DNA from: a phage
Strand: one strand, 5' to 3'
Sequence record: PX915678.1
Length of the DNA: 64,000 bases
Shown: in pieces, positions 7,520 to 15,480 of the stretch
Position numbering within the stretch: position 1 is the first letter of the stretch
How the letters are laid out: every line of letters begins with the position of its first letter
The notes under the pieces: model-generated
Seen by the model: only the letters and a program-made list of their open reading frames with translations
Told to the model about the DNA's origin: nothing
The model's database searches: none
Translations under genes and position numbers: made by a program

Positions 7520-7669
7520 TTACTGCATGACTGTGATAACTGTCATGATAACACGTTGAATTCCGAACGCAAGAAGACCTCCTGCTACTGCTGGAACAAC
7601 ACCTAAACCCGCCAGTAAAATGCTACCAGATACTAATGCAGCGCTTGTAATACCAATGAATGGACTCAT
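7520..7669 (-). CDS. Small hydrophobic membrane protein (49 aa) downstream of gene 52
   Basis: ATG overlaps gp52 stop (ATGA at 7666..7669); GAGGA SD; fully hydrophobic; not in ORF track. Confidence 0.45.
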   Translation of the reverse strand: MSPFIGITSAALVSGSILLAGLGVVPAVAGGLLAFGIQRVIMTVITVMQ

Positions 7670-8994
7670 TTGATTTCCTCTAAATCTTTGGTGTATTCTG
7701 TAACTACATCAGTAGTTTTCCAATATTCGTTTTCTTCTTTCTTAGCTTTAGCTTCTTCAGCAAGTTTCTTTGCTTCGTCGGAAGTCATATGAAAAATATT
7801 CATTCCGACTAGTTTATCAACATAAGAAGAATACATATCAATTTTAGAAAGTTCTTCGGTCAGTTCTTTGCGAGTTTTACCTTGTACAACAATTTCACCT
7901 GAAATTACTTTCTTAATGAAATGTGCCTTGGCAAAAGCTAAACGAAATGCTGATTCAGTTTCTTTGATTTTGTTATCAATTCGTTTTTGGACATAAGTTT
8001 TACGAACTTCAACGAAGTCTTTGATTAAATCAACTACATTATCGTAAACTTGCAGCTTTCCTTTCTCATTAATAACGGTGATATTCTGGGAACGACGCTC
8101 AATCAACCCGAAGTCTTTCATAATTTTTGCATGACGTTCTTCTTCGTTATCACTCAAAGAGTATTCTTTACGGAATTTAACTTTAAAGCCAAAACCATGC
8201 TCACCGCAAGCATCATCCCACGTAATGAAACCTTTATCTTCAAGCGGGTCTAAGATTTTACTCACGTAAGTTTCACGATCATACTTATATGGAATCTCAG
8301 TGATATGCATTTGAGTTCGTGAAGTAAACTTGTATGTTCCACGAATTTCATATTGACCGTCAATTTCAACGACTTCACCACGAAATTCTGGGAATTCTAC
8401 CTTAGGTTTAATTACTTTCTTTCCTTGAAGAGCTTGCAGTACAGCTTTCTTGACAGAAGAAACGCTATGAGGAAGAATGTAAGTTGCATAACCAGTTGCA
8501 ATACCGGAAACACCGTTAAGAAGAACAGTAGGAATAATAGGCAAATAGAAAGCAGGCGGAATGTGTTCTTTATCTTGATGTACCGGAGCATATTCAGTAT
8601 CTTTATATACATTATAGAAATTTTTACTTACACGAGCAAAAATATAACGACTTGCCGCTGCTTTTTGAACGGTACGAGAACCAAAGTTTCCTTGACCATC
8701 TAACAAAGGAAAGTTATTATTCCAAGTGTTAGCCATCAAAGCACCTGCGTCTTGCGCAGAGTTTTCACCATGATGATATCCAAGGTCCGCTACACCACCT
8801 GCAATAGAAGCGAGTTTGTGAAACTTATCTTTATTTCCTCGTGCCAAATCAAGAGCTCGAGCAATAACAAATCGTTGAACTGGCTTAAATCCATCAATCA
8901 TATTTGGGATAGCACGATTTTCAACCGTGTACATAGCATAAGCCAATGCTTCATTATCAATGATACTTTTTAAATCGCGATTATTCAGTTGCAT
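7666..8994 (-). CDS. 52: DNA topoisomerase II medium subunit gp52 (GyrA-like cleavage-religation domain)
   Basis: 442 aa as in T4; GyrA-like N-terminal motifs (MIDGFKPVQRFVIARA...). Confidence 0.9.
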   Translation of the reverse strand: MQLNNRDLKSIIDNEALAYAMYTVENRAIPNMIDGFKPVQRFVIARALDLARGNKDKFHKLASIAGGVADLGYHHGENSAQDAGALMANTWNNNFPLLDGQGNFGSRTVQKAAASRYIFARVSKNFYNVYKDTEYAPVHQDKEHIPPAFYLPIIPTVLLNGVSGIATGYATYILPHSVSSVKKAVLQALQGKKVIKPKVEFPEFRGEVVEIDGQYEIRGTYKFTSRTQMHITEIPYKYDRETYVSKILDPLEDKGFITWDDACGEHGFGFKVKFRKEYSLSDNEEERHAKIMKDFGLIERRSQNITVINEKGKLQVYDNVVDLIKDFVEVRKTYVQKRIDNKIKETESAFRLAFAKAHFIKKVISGEIVVQGKTRKELTEELSKIDMYSSYVDKLVGMNIFHMTSDEAKKLAEEAKAKKEENEYWKTTDVVTEYTKDLEEIK

Positions 8995-8998
8995 AAAT

Positions 8999-9139
8999 TT
9001 ACCATACTAGTGAATGTAGTGCCATAATAACATCAGAAATGAAAAGCACGACTTGAATTAATCCGAACATTACTCCATAATATAGTGCTACCAATAAAGT
9101 AGCAAGGGCTAATGAATAGCCCAAGATTTTCTTAATCAT
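8999..9139 (-). CDS. Small membrane protein (46 aa) upstream of gene 52
   Basis: ATG at 9137..9139 overlaps stop of upstream ORF (TAATG); ends 4 nt before gp52 start; hydrophobic; not in ORF track. Confidence 0.4.
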   Translation of the reverse strand: MIKKILGYSLALATLLVALYYGVMFGLIQVVLFISDVIMALHSLVW

Positions 9140-9290
9140 TAGTAGATAACAACACAAATGTTAAATATGCACACATACCCTGGGCTAAAGCTTGTGAAAA
9201 CACACTGCTAGCATCAATACAGATAGTTAAAACACATGCTACTATCCAACAAACAAATGAAATAACTCCTAATAATTTTGCGATATTCAT
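9132..9290 (-). CDS. ac: Ac-like small membrane protein (52 aa)
   Basis: ATG at 9288..9290 with GAGGAG SD (track start 9320 is TTG); one TM; position between stp and 52; symbol assigned by position and size only. Confidence 0.45.
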   Translation of the reverse strand: MNIAKLLGVISFVCWIVACVLTICIDASSVFSQALAQGMCAYLTFVLLSTND

Positions 9291-9300
9291 AATATTCTCC

Positions 9301-9456
9301 TCAACTATTTTTAGAACCAATGTACGCGAATAATGATAAAATCGCTAATACGCCCTGAGCTGATGCTTGCAAAAATACTGAAGTTTCTCCAGTTATTACT
9401 GTTCCGATGCATAAAAAGAACCAACAGAAAAAGGCTATACCGTGAACAAATTTCAT
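9301..9456 (-). CDS. Paralogue of the Ac-like small membrane protein (51 aa)
   Basis: GAGG SD then ATG at 9454..9456; shares F.CW...C...T...SVF.QA.AQG with ORF 9132..9290; not in ORF track. Confidence 0.45.
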   Translation of the reverse strand: MKFVHGIAFFCWFFLCIGTVITGETSVFLQASAQGVLAILSLFAYIGSKNS

Positions 9457-9463
9457 ATTTTCC

Positions 9464-9544
9464 TCACTGGCGTCCGAAGACGCCTTTGGTTTTAAGATTA
9501 TTACGATAGAACTGCATCACGTGTTCGTTATGGAAATTACTCAT
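9464..9544 (-). CDS. stp: Stp peptide (26 aa; host restriction-system modulator that triggers PrrC anticodon nuclease)
   Basis: Translation [26 protein letters not shown] matches T4 Stp as I recall it; ATG overlaps ndd stop (TAATG at 9542..9546); below track size cut-off. Confidence 0.75.
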
Positions 9545-9999
9545 TAGTATGCCTGCAAAACAAATTTAAAGTTATCAGCCAACATACGGTTCATTTCTTC
9601 AAGCGTTTGATATTCAGAATGATGATTACGAGTAAACGCTAAAGCTAACTGGCCTTTTCCAAATCCTGTCGTCAGAGGTTTCATCTTAGAAGCAGGTAGA
9701 TAAAATACTGTATATGGAACATTATTATTTGCAATAGTACGCGCAAGCTGAGACCGACGCTGACGAATATGACTTAGAACTGCACTGAATCCTTGCTTAG
9801 AACGCTGATTACCTACATAAAATCGTGCAGATACACACGGACTATCAAATGGACCACCAAATTTACTCACTAAAAAGTAAAATCCAGGTGTAGATAAAAT
9901 GTCTTTATGTGGAGTTCCAAAAACCCATTCACCGCCCTTGATTGTACCAATAACAGTAGCACCTGCATTATTCAAATCAGTAACAGTCATGTATTTCAT
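9544..9999 (-). CDS. ndd: Nucleoid disruption protein Ndd
   Basis: 151 aa as in T4 Ndd; position between denB and stp. Confidence 0.8.
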
Positions 10000-10058
10000 A
10001 TTAATTTCCTCTAATTATTTTCTACTCCAAGGCCGCATGAATACACACGGCCGATAAA

Positions 10059-10274
10059 TTAATCGTCGCAGTCGACGCTCAATTCCCAGAACTCTTCTAC
10101 AGTATAAGTTTCAGTATCGTTTTCAATACAGAAACGTTCATTACTGTTATTTGCTAAAGTAGCATTAACTGTCATTTTCTCGCTAGTGCTCTTAAGAGGT
10201 GAAATACGAATTAACTGATCACCACTATCCAAGCAAAAAATTTCGCCAACTTTTACATCTTTAAAAATTTTCAT
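10059..10274 (-). CDS. Hypothetical protein (ndd-denB interval)
   Basis: 71-aa track ORF. Confidence 0.5.
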   Translation of the reverse strand: MKIFKDVKVGEIFCLDSGDQLIRISPLKSTSEKMTVNATLANNSNERFCIENDTETYTVEEFWELSVDCDD

Positions 10275-10389
10275 AATTCACCTCAGGGAGTATAAAATCC
10301 AAATGCAGTTGTTGACCATCCCATCCAATACGGAAAATTTGCACCAACGTAAAACATGAGAATATAAAACCAACCACTCAGCAAATTCA

Positions 10390-10587
10390 TCATTTTACAC
10401 CATTCCAAATTGTTTCAACCACAGATTTTAAGCCATTTTGATGAATGTCCATTCCGACAACTGCCATCAAATAAATTCCAACTACAACTGAACCTAAGGC
10501 AAAAATCAGCATGAAAATGAATAAAGCTGGAAAAATATTATCGAAAAACCATTCAATAAATGTAAAAGCACTGCGTTTACGCTTCAT
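10390..10587 (-). CDS. Small membrane protein (65 aa)
   Basis: ATG at 10585..10587 with GAGGA SD (track start 10608 is TTG); basic N-terminus then TM helix. Confidence 0.5.
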   Translation of the reverse strand: MKRKRSAFTFIEWFFDNIFPALFIFMLIFALGSVVVGIYLMAVVGMDIHQNGLKSVVETIWNGVK

Positions 10588-10594
10588 ATTTTCC

Positions 10595-10708
10595 TCACAT
10601 AAATCCAAAGTAAGCGTTTAATACATCAATCATTAAAACGATTGGGAATATACTCAAAACTACTAGTATTATAACTACATTCCATATAGCTTTAACAATC
10701 TTTTTCAT
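10595..10708 (-). CDS. Small membrane protein (37 aa)
   Basis: GGAGG SD then ATG at 10706..10708; single TM; C-terminal part of track ORF 10595..10843. Confidence 0.4.
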   Translation of the reverse strand: MKKIVKAIWNVVIILVVLSIFPIVLMIDVLNAYFGFM

Positions 10709-10736
10709 TTTCTGTTCCTCCGTAGTTGATAGGGTA

Positions 10737-10766
10737 ATAATACCACAGAGGAACAGTCTTGTAAAC
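10737..10766 (-). promoter_or_regulatory. Early promoter with conserved leader
   Basis: GTTTAC (10761..10766), 18 nt, TATTAT (10737..10742); leader ...CUACGGAGGAACAGAAA-AUG. Confidence 0.5.
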
Positions 10767-10983
10767 AACTTTTTTAAAAATATTCGTAATAAATGTGAAT
10801 ACCAATCACCACTGCCGAAACTTGTGCAACCCACCATGCACAAGCAATAAGTACAGAATTCAAAATTTTCATAATAACCTCATTACAAAAGTAAATGTTA
10901 AACAAATTAATGGAATACTAACTAACCAAACAAAACACCACCACAATGAACTCATAGTTCAATCTCAACGATTTTCATTTTAC

Positions 10984-11190
10984 TCAATAATCTGCTAAAA
11001 GATCGACGATTGCATCACGAAGACACTTATTCGCAATACGTTTAAGAGCAATTTCAGTTTCTGGAGCATTTTGAATAATCATTGAATTCAATTCAGCCTC
11101 AGCAAACTGAAGTTCTTTAACTAATTCAGCTTTATATTTTCCTTGCCCTTTCTTAGCTTTTGCTCGTTTTAATTCAGCTGTAGTAAACAT
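10984..11190 (-). CDS. Hypothetical protein (68 aa) upstream of ndd-side cluster
   Basis: ATG at 11188..11190 with GGAG SD (track start 11202 is TTG); helical, Lys/Glu-rich. Confidence 0.55.
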   Translation of the reverse strand: MFTTAELKRAKAKKGQGKYKAELVKELQFAEAELNSMIIQNAPETEIALKRIANKCLRDAIVDLLADY

Positions 11191-11224
11191 TTTATTCTCC
11201 AAATCCGTATCAGTTGATAGTTGT

Positions 11225-11254
11225 ATAGTACCACAGTCCTTGTGGTATGTAAAC
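11225..11254 (-). promoter_or_regulatory. Early promoter
   Basis: GTTTAC (11249..11254), 18 nt, TACTAT (11225..11230); spacer contains CCACAG-TCC-TTGTGG inverted repeat. Confidence 0.55.
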
Positions 11255-11271
11255 CGTTTTGTGAAAATTTT

Positions 11272-11829
11272 TTAAATGGAAAGATACCATCCGTTGTAGT
11301 TGCTTTTTCTTACAACCTTACGAAGGTCTTCTCTATCACCAATGAACTTCGGAGTGTACTGGATGACACCTGGATGAATTTCTTTAGTGTTGAATATAAT
11401 TATACAGTCAGCGACCTGATGATTCAGAATGGGCCCTAGATTTATTCCAGAACCATATGGATACTCTCCGCTGCATCCTGTTGTTACAGAAATCCAACGT
11501 GAGTCAGTTTGATGTGTCTTAACTTCTACACGAAGCCCGCAGTATCTTGGATGCGCCAATACATCCCATGCATATGTATACGGGTCATTAACATCTTCTT
11601 GGCCTTTGTTAACATACCCACTTAGCCAATCTGCTACAAAAAATTCTGCGTACACCGCGATACGACATCTTTCAATAACTTCTGCTTTATCCTGATTTGG
11701 ATTTTGTTTTAAAGAGTATCTTGCTGTATCAGCAATTTTGACCTTCATTTCACTAGTCAAGTCACTGTTCGATAGGGTAAATGTCGGAATCTGAAATAGT
11801 CTCTGTAAACCCGGATTCGTTTTCTGCAT
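11272..11829 (-). CDS. denB: Endonuclease IV DenB (dC-specific ssDNA endonuclease)
   Basis: 185 aa as in T4 DenB; position next to rIIB. Confidence 0.8.
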   Translation of the reverse strand: MQKTNPGLQRLFQIPTFTLSNSDLTSEMKVKIADTARYSLKQNPNQDKAEVIERCRIAVYAEFFVADWLSGYVNKGQEDVNDPYTYAWDVLAHPRYCGLRVEVKTHQTDSRWISVTTGCSGEYPYGSGINLGPILNHQVADCIIIFNTKEIHPGVIQYTPKFIGDREDLRKVVRKSNYNGWYLSI

Positions 11830-12091
11830 TTAGACTTTCCTTTTTACCGCTGAGATAAGCGTTATATACTTTAAGAGTGCCGTAATAAATTCGGTCATTT
11901 TCATCTAAAGACTCATGGTCAAGTTCATCGAGTTCCTTTTTATCCATGACTATAATATCATTGCAGTAAAGAAACCCAAGTTTTTCGTGACCAAACTCAA
12001 ATTTATTGCAGTACACAATATTAGCATGATGATTTCCGTGCAGTTTAATCTCTTTTATGTCGGAATCACCGATATTCATACAATAAATCAT
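11762..12091 (-). CDS. Hypothetical protein (denB-proximal)
   Basis: 109-aa track ORF; 68-nt out-of-frame overlap with denB start, so one of the two starts may be misplaced. Confidence 0.45.
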   Translation of the reverse strand: MIYCMNIGDSDIKEIKLHGNHHANIVYCNKFEFGHEKLGFLYCNDIIVMDKKELDELDHESLDENDRIYYGTLKVYNAYLSGKKESLNAENESGFTETISDSDIYPIEQ

Positions 12092-12109
12092 AATTTTTCC
12101 TTAAAACAA

Positions 12110-12124
12110 AAGGGCCGAAGCCCC
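12110..12124 (-). terminator. UUCG-tetraloop hairpin after the 64-aa ORF
   Basis: GGGC-CGAA-GCCC on forward strand (UUCG loop on transcript), A/T runs both sides. Confidence 0.4.
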
Positions 12125-12129
12125 TTATT

Positions 12130-12324
12130 TTATTTGAATTGCGCAATTCTTTTTTCTAAACAATCTGCGTAAGATTTCATTGAGATGAACTGTGAAAGCA
12201 GTAATTCTTGCTCAACTTCATTAATCGTTAGAAACTTTGTGCTTTCTAAAAATTTGCTCAGTGCATTAATTTTGAGCATTAATTGATCGTATTCTTCTTT
12301 TACTCGTGCTTGATAACCTAACAT
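12130..12324 (-). CDS. Hypothetical protein (64 aa) downstream of rIIB
   Basis: Track ORF, predicted helical. Confidence 0.5.
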   Translation of the reverse strand: MLGYQARVKEEYDQLMLKINALSKFLESTKFLTINEVEQELLLSQFISMKSYADCLEKRIAQFK

Positions 12325-12338
12325 AATTTTCCTTAGTT

Positions 12339-12354
12339 AAGGGCCGAAGCCCTT
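12339..12354 (-). terminator. UUCG-tetraloop hairpin overlapping rIIB stop codon
   Basis: AAGGGC-CGAA-GCCCTT; rIIB stop at 12353..12355 lies in the 3' arm. Confidence 0.4.
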
Positions 12355-13291
12355 ATTTAAATTGTTCAGTAACGTCTTCAACTACTTCGTATTGGCAGGT
12401 ACGCATTTTAGCATCGTTGTAATCAATCGGAATTGATACTACATCACGCGGATGCACTTTAACTTTTACAACTCGACTGGTTGAACTGCCAAAGTGACGA
12501 ATATAAGATTTAGAACACACATGCAGACCACGAGAACAAGTTTGTGTATCATCGTCATTCACACGAGTACGTGGCATTTTAACTACTTTACCAGGACTGT
12601 TATCAAAAGTATTTGAATGACAATCAAAGTAATTACTGCGAACTACTTTCCAAGCATAGAAGTAACCATCTTCTGTGATTTCAATATCGTTTGCTACCAA
12701 GAAATCAAAGAGTCGAGATACCGCTTTTTGGCTCGGGTTTTCCAACAGATTTTCCAAGAACGGAAAATAAAATTCAAAGTTTTCGCCTTTTTCCATCGAA
12801 TCGAGAATACGATCAACTAAACCAGATCGCAATTCAATATTTTGATAGAACAAGCTTCCACCTTCAATTCGAACATCACCGGAAATATATTTTTCAACAG
12901 CGCGACGAACATTAATTTTTTGTGCCGCTTCTTCCAATTTATCTGCAACAAGCAGATTAAGAATTTCCTGGAAGTTTGAATGAGTATTAGGAGTTGCGTT
13001 ATAAGTTACACCGTCAACAGTAATTGAAATGAATTTTTTAGATGCATTCCAAATAATGTCAGATTTAGCAACTGGAGCAATAACTGCATCGCTATTAACT
13101 TTAACTGTAATATCACCGCTAATGGTAACTTTAGAGCGCTCAGCTTCTTCAGCATTTTTCAAAACACGACGGATTGTGTCAACCGATACACCTTGCCAAT
13201 CAGCCAATTCCTGCTGAGTATAATTACCACTTAAATACAGTTTGATAATTTCAGCTTGTTCGTTTTTGGTCAGGCATTTAATATTGTACAT
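12353..13291 (-). CDS. rIIB: Rapid-lysis / lysis-inhibition protein rIIB
   Basis: 312 aa as in T4 rIIB; adjacent to rIIA. Confidence 0.9.
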   Translation of the reverse strand: MYNIKCLTKNEQAEIIKLYLSGNYTQQELADWQGVSVDTIRRVLKNAEEAERSKVTISGDITVKVNSDAVIAPVAKSDIIWNASKKFISITVDGVTYNATPNTHSNFQEILNLLVADKLEEAAQKINVRRAVEKYISGDVRIEGGSLFYQNIELRSGLVDRILDSMEKGENFEFYFPFLENLLENPSQKAVSRLFDFLVANDIEITEDGYFYAWKVVRSNYFDCHSNTFDNSPGKVVKMPRTRVNDDDTQTCSRGLHVCSKSYIRHFGSSTSRVVKVKVHPRDVVSIPIDYNDAKMRTCQYEVVEDVTEQFK

Positions 13292-13302
13292 AATTTTCCT
13301 TA

Positions 13303-15480
13303 TTAGGCCGCAAGGGCCTTCATAGTTTTAGCGATTTGGGAAACTTCATCATCACTTAAAGAGTTGCGATAACCGATGAAGTCGGAAACAATACGGAATT
13401 TCTTGGTAAACTCAGCAACCATTTTATCACTATTTTTTGAAGCATTATTTGACAATACATCAAAAAGATTAGTTACTGTCCAGATGTCATGACCGATGGT
13501 ACCTTTTCCACCGTTGAAATATATACCCTGCAATGAACTAACCATATTACCAAGGCGAGTATATTCTTCAGAAACTTCATCTACACTGAAGTACTTCATC
13601 ATAAAATCGAGTTCAGGATACTTAATAATTTTATCAATATATCGTTTAGCTGAACTTGAATAACCTACATACTTATCATAATCTACAGCATCAAAAGCAT
13701 CTACATATAAATCACGCAGAGTTTCAAAAATACATTGGCACTGACCAAGTTCTTTTACCTTTTTCTGCAAAAGTGGACGAATAACATAAAATTCATTAAT
13801 GCCAATAAGATTAGCCATACGAGTCAAAATACTCATAGATGGATGACAAAGCGATGTAGTACCATCCATAGAGAAAATATCAGAACGATGCATGTATGCT
13901 ACGTAACCAGTAATTTCATCTGCTTCTGATGTGAGCGTAAACAGTTCCTCTTTTTCCCAGCGCCCGTCTTTAATTTCAAACTTAAATGCAGTAGCAGCTT
14001 TAGGGCGAGGAGCTTTACTTTTAACTGCCTTCGGAATATAACTTTTAACTAAAGCTTCAATTTCTGACAAATAATGAATGTTAACTTCATCACTTTCAAA
14101 CATTGCCATAATATCAGGAAGTAAATCAATCTGCGATTCTACTTCTGGATTAATAAACAGAAGACGCTCATTATGATGAATATTCAAAGTGTTATTAAAT
14201 TCACTATCATCTAACGCATGCGCTAATCCACGGACAATATTAACACGATTTTTAATATTATCAATAACGATATTAATTTTTGTCGTATTAATACCAAACA
14301 GACGATAACTTGATGCAACGGCTGAAGTTTCATGACTTTGCTTAATGCGTTTCAGTCGAGGGTCAAGATTTACTTCATACACAACTCCTGCATTGCATAG
14401 TTTACTATCAGGTTCAAACATGCTTTGCATCTTCTTATATGACAGATTTTTAGTCGTAAATTTGACTGAATTACTAATCATATAATCTCGAGCAGAATAT
14501 CCCATCTTCATCAATTCACGGTATGTATGACGAGGAGATGTAGATTCTTTAAATCGTTTTACATCTTCATTGAATGCCTTCTCACTAAGCTCTTTAACAC
14601 GCTCAATAATATTTTTACGAGTACGATCATCTAGTGAAAGGGCTTCGCGTGATGGAGCAATATCAAGTGAACCCATTGGAAACTTAATGTAATTCACTTC
14701 ATTGCGGATGCTTAACCAGTTACGGTCTCTAATAACACCATCGATAGGATAAACAATACCACCGTAGATAGCATACAATCCACCGCGATCTGGCCAGTAT
14801 CTTTCTGGATTTACACCGTAATAGTCATCAAAATCCGGAAAATAATCAATTTCGCGGTCAAGACCATTAATAATAGCCAAATCTTTGAATGGTCGCATGA
14901 TATAAGAAACTTCATAAGCAAAGTTTCTAAAGTCTTTTTCTTCAACTGGAACTACGATTTCAATACCAGTTTTATCATCTGGACCCATTTCTTTTACAAA
15001 CGTAGGTTTAATTTGTGGACCATCGCCATCCATGTAAGCTACATAACCACGAATTTCGCCTTTATGATATGAAGTAATACTAAATGTATCAGTATAACTA
15101 AACGGAGATTTAGAACCTAAACCAAACCCACCAATGAAATCATTAGATTCAGCCTTAGATGAACTAAAGTATGAATTATACAACCCGGGAGAATTATCAT
15201 CACCTTGAATATCAAAATCGCTCATACCTGGACCAAAATCTCGACAAACAAATCGCGGATCTAATCGTCCTGGAACTTGAATGATAAATTTTTCAGGATT
15301 TCCATTGAGAGCATGGGCATCAATCATGTTGGTAATCAATTCACGGACTACTGCGCGAATCTTGTTTGTATACAAATCAGATGATAGAATTTTAAATACT
15401 TTAGGAGATGCTGTGATGCTAAATGCTTTTGATTTAGAACCATTACCAAGAATTGTTTCTTTTTCAGTGGTGATAATCAT
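13303..15480 (-). CDS. rIIA: Rapid-lysis protein rIIA
   Basis: 725 aa as in T4 rIIA; N-terminal GHKL-type ATPase-like motifs ([10 protein letters not shown]). Confidence 0.9.
13305..13319 (-). other. Short GC hairpin (GGCC-GCAAG-GGCC) between rIIB start and rIIA stop
   Basis: Inverted repeat 13305..13319 overlapping rIIA stop codon. Confidence 0.3.

Follow-up and report, generated by a model that had tools for sequence, protein, structure and literature searches.

How a T4-like phage comes to carry two ac-like genes where T4 has one, and whether both are genuine genes, is the question raised by the locus between ndd and gene 52 in the DNA analysed here (64,000 nucleotides of sequence record PX915678.1, referred to below as the window). 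The source is a T4-like phage of the genus Tequatrovirus. Positions 8900–9650 of the window are 100% identical to Escherichia phage Ec_MI-02, the closest public record, and this region is matched by 546 phage records. The best public match of the neighbouring 5-kb stretch (9400–14400) reaches only 97–98%, and the window is therefore a mosaic of its own.

The ndd–52 block and the stp gene

The block is read from the minus strand in the order ndd, stp, acB, acA, 52.1 and gene 52, all co-oriented (acA and acB are labels introduced here). Both ndd (nucleoid disruption protein, 151 aa; 9544..9999, minus strand) and gene 52 (topoisomerase II medium subunit, 442 aa; 7666..8994, minus strand) are open reading frames annotated in T4 and its relatives, ndd at the same position. 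The genes are tightly packed: (i) the TAA of ndd and the ATG of stp have base 9544 in common, giving TAATG, (ii) the ATG of 52.1 lies within the final codons of acA (an 8-nt overlap, ATGATTAA), and (iii) gene 52, the downstream border of the block, starts 4 nt past the 52.1 stop codon. The additional 46-aa hydrophobic peptide that had been noticed in this region was located at 8999..9139 (minus strand) and is gp52.1. It matches phrog_3595 and, over residues 1–46 of 46, the Pfam family PF24129 (DUF7396; E 3.5e-23, 81.9 bits, cut-off 27), and it is identical to T4 gp52.1 at 45 of 46 residues (A14T is the only change), with the same position and overlaps. The whole is very probably the standard T-even arrangement ndd-stp-ac-52.1-52, in a natural variant with two Ac-family members instead of one.

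Judging from the overlaps and gene packing, the block would probably be expressed as one transcript, with translation of stp and of 52.1 coupled to the gene upstream. A promoter scan of the block found 7 sites against 6.4 expected, with none above chance level, and an Rfam search of positions 8500–10500 gave no match. Inside 52.1 and ahead of gene 52 (9077–9105, minus strand), the window has TACTTTA at the place of T4 TGCTTTA (one mismatch), which in T4 is followed 12 nt on by TATATT. The T4 TGCTTTA...TATATT pair resembles a MotA-box middle promoter, and the promoter scan flagged the window site solely as a chance-level sigma-70-like site. The stop/start overlaps of ndd/stp (9537–9549) and acA/52.1 (9132–9144) contain a common 13-nt motif, TACTAATGA(T/G)TAA, which is a possible candidate substrate for deletions taking out stp and ac together.

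The preliminary description had pointed to a 26-codon open reading frame, absent from the supplied ORF track and overlapping the ndd stop codon, as the gene for Stp. The identification was borne out: the peptide (stp; 9464..9544, minus strand) is identical at 26 of 26 residues, and thus also over the N-terminal 18, to T4 Stp (NP_049878), and it matches PF08133 ("anticodon nuclease activator"; 75.3 bits, cut-off 25, E 2e-21, residues 1–26 of 26) and phrog_6763 (E 4e-21). As in T4, stp sits immediately downstream of ndd, with the same TAATG overlap and the same 3' hairpin; the difference is in the next gene, which is acB in the window and ac in T4. T4 Stp, a delayed-early product, is both required and sufficient for activation of the PrrC tRNA-Lys anticodon nuclease; it binds and inhibits the type Ic restriction enzyme EcoprrI, which blocks DNA restriction and, in prr+ hosts, unmasks PrrC (PMC3014915). 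This activity resides in the N-terminal 18 residues, and mutations cluster at residues 4–14 (PMC3014915). Given its identity with the experimentally tested T4 peptide, Stp of the window would be expected to neutralise type Ic restriction and to trigger PrrC in prr+ hosts.

The 3' end of stp (codons for GVFGR) can form a perfect 6-bp hairpin, GGCGUC-UUCG-GACGCC (9469..9484, minus strand), immediately ahead of the ribosome site of acB, with a folding energy of -17.5 kcal/mol and z -3.4. On the plus strand, this palindrome is followed by TTTGGTTTTA and scores as terminator-like; in some public records a "terminator" is annotated over the stp match. The hairpin is kept in all stp loci examined, with G-U wobble pairs and UUCG/UUUG loops as the only variants, and in this conservation coding and structural constraint cannot be separated.

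A tblastn search found stp in 614 phage records. Stp homologues were also seen in unrelated small E. coli siphoviruses, e.g. in Kagunavirus PDP21P8 (OZ035783, locus L048, rc 577–654, corresponding to locus positions 594–671), where the gene has a ribosome site of its own, and in Ro145clw, Rtp and LHE71. Their occurrence outside the T-even group suggests horizontal spread of this anti-type-Ic peptide.

Annotation of the gene lags behind its occurrence. Among the 40 stp matches listed, a stp feature is given only in the T4 record, and the other annotated ones mostly list ndd. The claim that stp falls below the threshold of ORF callers is in line with the record of Ec_MI-02, which is identical over 8900–9650 and in which neither stp nor 52.1 is annotated. 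The absence of stp from the ORF track thus reflects a real and widespread annotation gap and is no discovery. In addition, Ec_MI-02 (OP856590, locus L002, 2145–2597) and vB_Eco_F26 name Ndd "naphthalene 1,2-dioxygenase", a misannotation that is likely to propagate.

Two members of the Ac family between stp and 52.1

Both ac-like genes lie at the ac position, between stp and 52.1. The preliminary description had taken one of them to be probably Ac, and the downstream gene, acA (9132..9290, minus strand), turned out to be the orthologue of T4 Ac (NP_049877, "acridine resistance protein"), to which it is identical at 48 of 51 positions in the family alignment; its length of 52 aa is counted from the ATG, the ORF listing running further, to an upstream TTG. 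In the pairwise comparison, acA departs from T4 Ac by I13V and by the insertion of one Thr. Like T4 Ac, acA overlaps 52.1 by 8 nt and has the Gly at which the resistant variant G38R is altered; unlike T4 Ac, it has the extra Thr before the C-terminal ND and is preceded by acB, where T4 has stp. This extra Thr is widespread among other phages, and in PP01 the variant reportedly remains acriflavine-sensitive (bioRxiv 10.1101/2025.06.30.662393).

The upstream gene, acB (51 aa; 9301..9456, minus strand), appears in the alignment with T4 as one clean 166-nt insertion, a cassette placed between the stp stop codon and the ac start codon. T4 thus has a single copy, in agreement with the preliminary description, and the window exactly 166 nt more. 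Each gene has a ribosome site of its own: GAGGAAAAT upstream of the acB ATG, with GAGG 5 nt upstream, and GAGGAG 6 nt upstream of the acA ATG, the latter carried by the 10-nt acB-acA spacer (9291..9300, minus strand).

The proposed paralogy of the two proteins withstood a proper alignment. BLASTP of acB against acA gave 17 identities in 40 positions (43%; E 8e-10), and their Smith-Waterman score of 84 was reached by 0 of 20,000 shuffles (24.1 +/- 4.9). Both match phrog_2501 over 50 of 50 profile positions (E 4.9e-26 for acB and 1e-24 for acA). In the same comparison as the shuffle test, gp52.1 was unrelated to either, and no further Ac-family member was found within the window. A DNA-level repeat search of acA against acB revealed no repeat between the genes; the duplication is therefore old, with neither a recent duplication nor gene conversion. 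Of the tandem duplication described earlier, the two copies (against one in T4) are confirmed, but at 43% identity the duplication is not recent, and the arrangement was already in public records.

The two proteins have the same build. The helix-2 motif SVF.QA.AQG is present in both (its Gly is G38 in acA and G35 in acB), their GRAVY values are 1.15 and 1.41, and an AF2 model of acB, made from the family alignment, has helices at residues 2–22 and 27–50 (mean pLDDT 78). An ESMFold model of T4 Ac has the same two-helix shape (bioRxiv 10.1101/2025.06.30.662393). Across the wider Ac family (17 sequences), W12, T19, V27, Q30 and Q34 are invariant.

Searches of both paralogues against Pfam and NCBIfam returned no family match, and a PDB sequence search with the Ac family profile had none either; two B-type (acB-like) proteins carry the precomputed tag PF26944, which the local Pfam copy did not return. 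The Ac profile had 9 matches among 1.84 billion representatives, 7 of them short phage-type clusters (48–52 aa, two at E >1e-4). The other candidates, two long proteins (2254 and 859 aa) matching over short stretches at E 1e-4 to 5e-4, were taken as chance. By this profile search, the Ac family is a narrow one and lacks bacterial or distant relatives from which a function could be borrowed.

Arrangements in other phages

Three arrangements of Ac-family genes were found in this slot, that is, the A-type (acA-like) gene alone, the B-type gene alone, and both in tandem. From ndd to gene 52, the order is stp-A-52.1 in T4, stp-B-A-52.1 in the window, 101117BS1 and T4_ev151, and stp-B-52.1 in RB51, RB33, RPN226 and UPEC01 (in three of these four, RB51 and RB33 among them, the B-type gene is annotated as "ac"), while REP4 has stp-X-B-52.1, where X is an unrelated 53-aa membrane peptide. 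The single-copy B-type "Ac" of RB51, RB33, RB68, RPN226 and UPEC01 is 72–82% identical to acB in the family alignment and shares with it the TGETSVFLQ..AQG core, the length and the GAGGAAAAT ribosome site after stp. These proteins end in ...KND and their genes overlap 52.1, whereas in the window acB ends in ...KNS and has a further ac gene downstream.

DNA of acB type occurs in 93 phage records, and a query spanning the acB-acA junction was covered over at least 80% in 51. For the stp-ac junction of T4 type, 458 records give coverage, a number to which tandem carriers contribute as split matches. By these counts, about 400 records have acA only, about 50 the tandem and about 40 acB only, figures that include RefSeq/GenBank duplicates. 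The tandem might be taken for the majority state, since coverage of the query is 80% or more in 412 records, but this reading was rejected, as T4-type records without acB already reach about 78–80% coverage. Many tandem records annotate "acridine resistance" twice. The Stp and Ac genes and the tandem arrangement are thus already in public records, and the finding is correct but ordinary. The present analysis adds the polarity of the paralogues, the remnants in T2 and T6 and a crossover scar in a relative, and its evolutionary reading alone is new.

The slot also holds other small membrane proteins. A separate family of 51–55-aa two-helix proteins (X; motif G-V-W-x-P) occupies the stp-52.1 slot of other T-even phages, alone or beside an Ac-family gene (loci L008–L014, L025, L026, L030, L038 and L045); a comparison of the Ac and X families with hhalign gave a probability of 1.8%, i.e. 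the two are unrelated. In vB_EcoM-101117BS1 (L003, rc 607–780, corresponding to locus positions 1138–1311) and UPEC01 (L044, rc 451–624, locus positions 912–1085), an extra 57-aa membrane ORF (MKALFVMGYLLVLALF…CGVYE) lies between ndd and stp and overlaps the stp start. It appears to be another variable small-membrane-protein cassette of the block.

In the family alignment, B-type proteins share 14–19 identities with outgroup T-even phages and the A-type 11; being nearer to the outgroups, the B-type is the conservative form and T4 Ac the diverged paralogue. Distant T-even phages from IMG/VR, with Ndd 55–64% identical, have Ac homologues with the B-like motif TGE(T/S)SV.SQ, and in the cluster P0009 a B-like N-half is combined with an A-like C-half, which makes it intermediate.

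The spacers preserve further traces. The acB stop codon and the acB-acA spacer ahead of the acA ATG read TGAGGAGAATATT, which resembles the stp-acB spacer TGAGGAAAAT. An intact acB is missing from T2 and T6, and the sequence leading into their acA is GGTTTTAAAAATAGTTGAGGAGAATACT-ATG, in which the four final codons of acB and the tandem-type spacer are retained; over 41 nt, it has 2 mismatches to the window. Stp of the two phages is a fusion of Stp residues 1–18 with an acB-derived tail, NFGILGFKK or NFGILGFKNS, the latter ending in the KNS of acB (L046, T2 PV648364, rc 525–608, corresponding to locus positions 670–753; L050, T6 MH550421, 4838–4924). The acB 3' remnant fused to Stp indicates that T2 and T6 go back to an ancestor with the tandem and that an in-frame deletion, which spared the 18 functional residues of Stp, joined stp codon 18 to the acB 3' end. 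As regards acA, codon 11 is a TAA in T2, and the C-terminus is frameshifted in T6 (…AQGMWCIFNICVVI).

In T4, the junction reads TGAGGAAAAT-ATGAAT, the stp-acB spacer joined to acA. This would be compatible with a deletion between repeated stop-GAGGA...ATGAA junctions, and the junction alone would also allow an insertion of acB.

Instead of an old duplication in place followed by losses, unequal crossing-over in co-infection could have stacked an A-type and a B-type gene that had been divergent alleles of a single locus. That phages with A only, B only and B-A coexist speaks for such a route, as do the short common repeats at the gene junctions (e.g. TACTAATGA(T/G)TAA and TGAGGA.AAT) and, in the same slot of two relatives (L010 and L013), the unmistakable scar of an unequal crossover. 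In both, stp and an acB-like gene precede the scar, which consists of about 70 nt from the 5' end of 52.1 and about 66 nt from the 3' end of stp, fused at GAGTAAT (in L010 at 2675–2823); downstream of it lie X and an entire copy of 52.1, an order that shows how such stacks form. However, the acB-acA junction of the window is scar-free, with no remnant of 52.1 or stp, and its spacer resembles a copy of the stp-acB spacer that has since diverged. Moreover, the intermediate sequence P0009 exists, and the A-type must still derive from a B-like ancestor, so that stacking touches the route and not the paralogy. We consider stacking of alleles possible but somewhat unlikely, and duplication in place with subsequent losses is the reading retained here.

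As to the state of acB itself, all seven alleles read have an uninterrupted frame, with GAGG 5–6 nt upstream of the ATG, and dN/dS among them (Nei-Gojobori) was 0.09–0.67 with a median of 0.33, being below 1 in all 21 pairs; these values come from only about 34 synonymous sites and from pairs that are not independent. From these substitution patterns, acB is judged to be a conserved paralogue under purifying selection. It is very unlikely that acB is a redundant leftover, unexpressed or decaying, with acA alone of importance. In favour of such a leftover, about 400 of about 546 T4-like records do without it, T4 among them, T2 and T6 keep only a remnant, and the highest dN/dS (0.67) belongs to the sole comparison of tandem carriers (the window against T4_ev151; 3 synonymous and 7 non-synonymous differences), but against this stand the intact frames, the strong GAGG site and the ratios below 1 in all pairs, a core (FFCW...TGETSVFLQ..AQG) that is invariant among B-type alleles, and the B-type as the sole ac gene of RB51, RB33, RPN226 and UPEC01.

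Function of the Ac proteins and meaning of the tandem

Cells infected by T4 accumulate acridines by the action of Ac, and loss of ac leads to acriflavine resistance; the substitution G38R inactivates T4 Ac and makes the phage resistant, while expression of Ac by itself makes E. coli more sensitive to both acriflavine and ampicillin (bioRxiv 10.1101/2025.06.30.662393). The AcrAB-TolC efflux pump was proposed, as a hypothesis, to be the target of Ac (bioRxiv 10.1101/2025.06.30.662393), and a 2026 PNAS paper repeats the blockade of AcrAB-TolC by Ac as an assumption. PP01, the phage tested in the preprint, has acA only and is hence not informative as a tandem carrier.

By the positive-inside rule, acA and acB are both predicted to be helical hairpins of the inner membrane whose N- and C-termini lie on the cytoplasmic side, because Lys residues are found at both ends (K2 and K49 inside) and a Glu (E24) in the four-residue loop. 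The conserved polar/small face of helix 2 (S-V-F-x-Q-A-x-A-Q-G), which includes the Gly of G38R, may pack against a membrane partner. Blockade of efflux is the leading candidate for the action of Ac, held tentatively and at somewhat less than even chances. E. coli AcrZ (49 aa), which binds AcrB, offers a functional analogy and is not a homologue: BLASTP of Ac against AcrZ gave no alignment at E up to 100. Both are small and hydrophobic, but AcrZ has one helix and tunes the substrate range of the pump, whereas Ac has two and is a proposed pump inhibitor.

The main alternative is that proteins of the Ac family raise the permeability of the envelope directly, e.g. as an oligomeric leak or pore, an earlier model of uptake that goes back to Silver. 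With their polar Q-x-x-x-Q face, such small two-helix hairpins might form the lining of an oligomeric pore, and early work, as far as it is summarised in bioRxiv 10.1101/2025.06.30.662393, reported more dye uptake by infected cells; the same preprint, however, argues for interference with efflux from the combined sensitisation to acriflavine and ampicillin. Direct permeabilisation is a possibility that we rate as doubtful, and efflux blockade remains the preferred candidate.

A broader and decidedly speculative proposal, which we think rather unlikely to hold as a whole, is that acA and acB have diverged in function (acting on different pumps or envelope targets, or as a hetero-oligomer), that the stp-52.1 interval serves as a recombination slot for two-helix membrane effectors (Ac-A, Ac-B and X) through microhomology at the junctions, and that T4 Ac is the derived and the B-type the ancestral form.

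The consequences concern mainly annotation and the natural history of the T-even phages, and will be of interest mainly to specialists in this group. Gene callers often miss stp (26 aa) and 52.1 (46 aa), so that the anti-restriction and PrrC-trigger content of phages is under-reported. T4 carries only the derived Ac paralogue, and the older form, alone or in tandem, is found in about one sixth of T4-like records. Redundancy of acA and acB would be expected to make spontaneous mutants resistant to acriflavine much rarer in phages with the tandem, which would bear on the use of ac as a counter-selectable marker.
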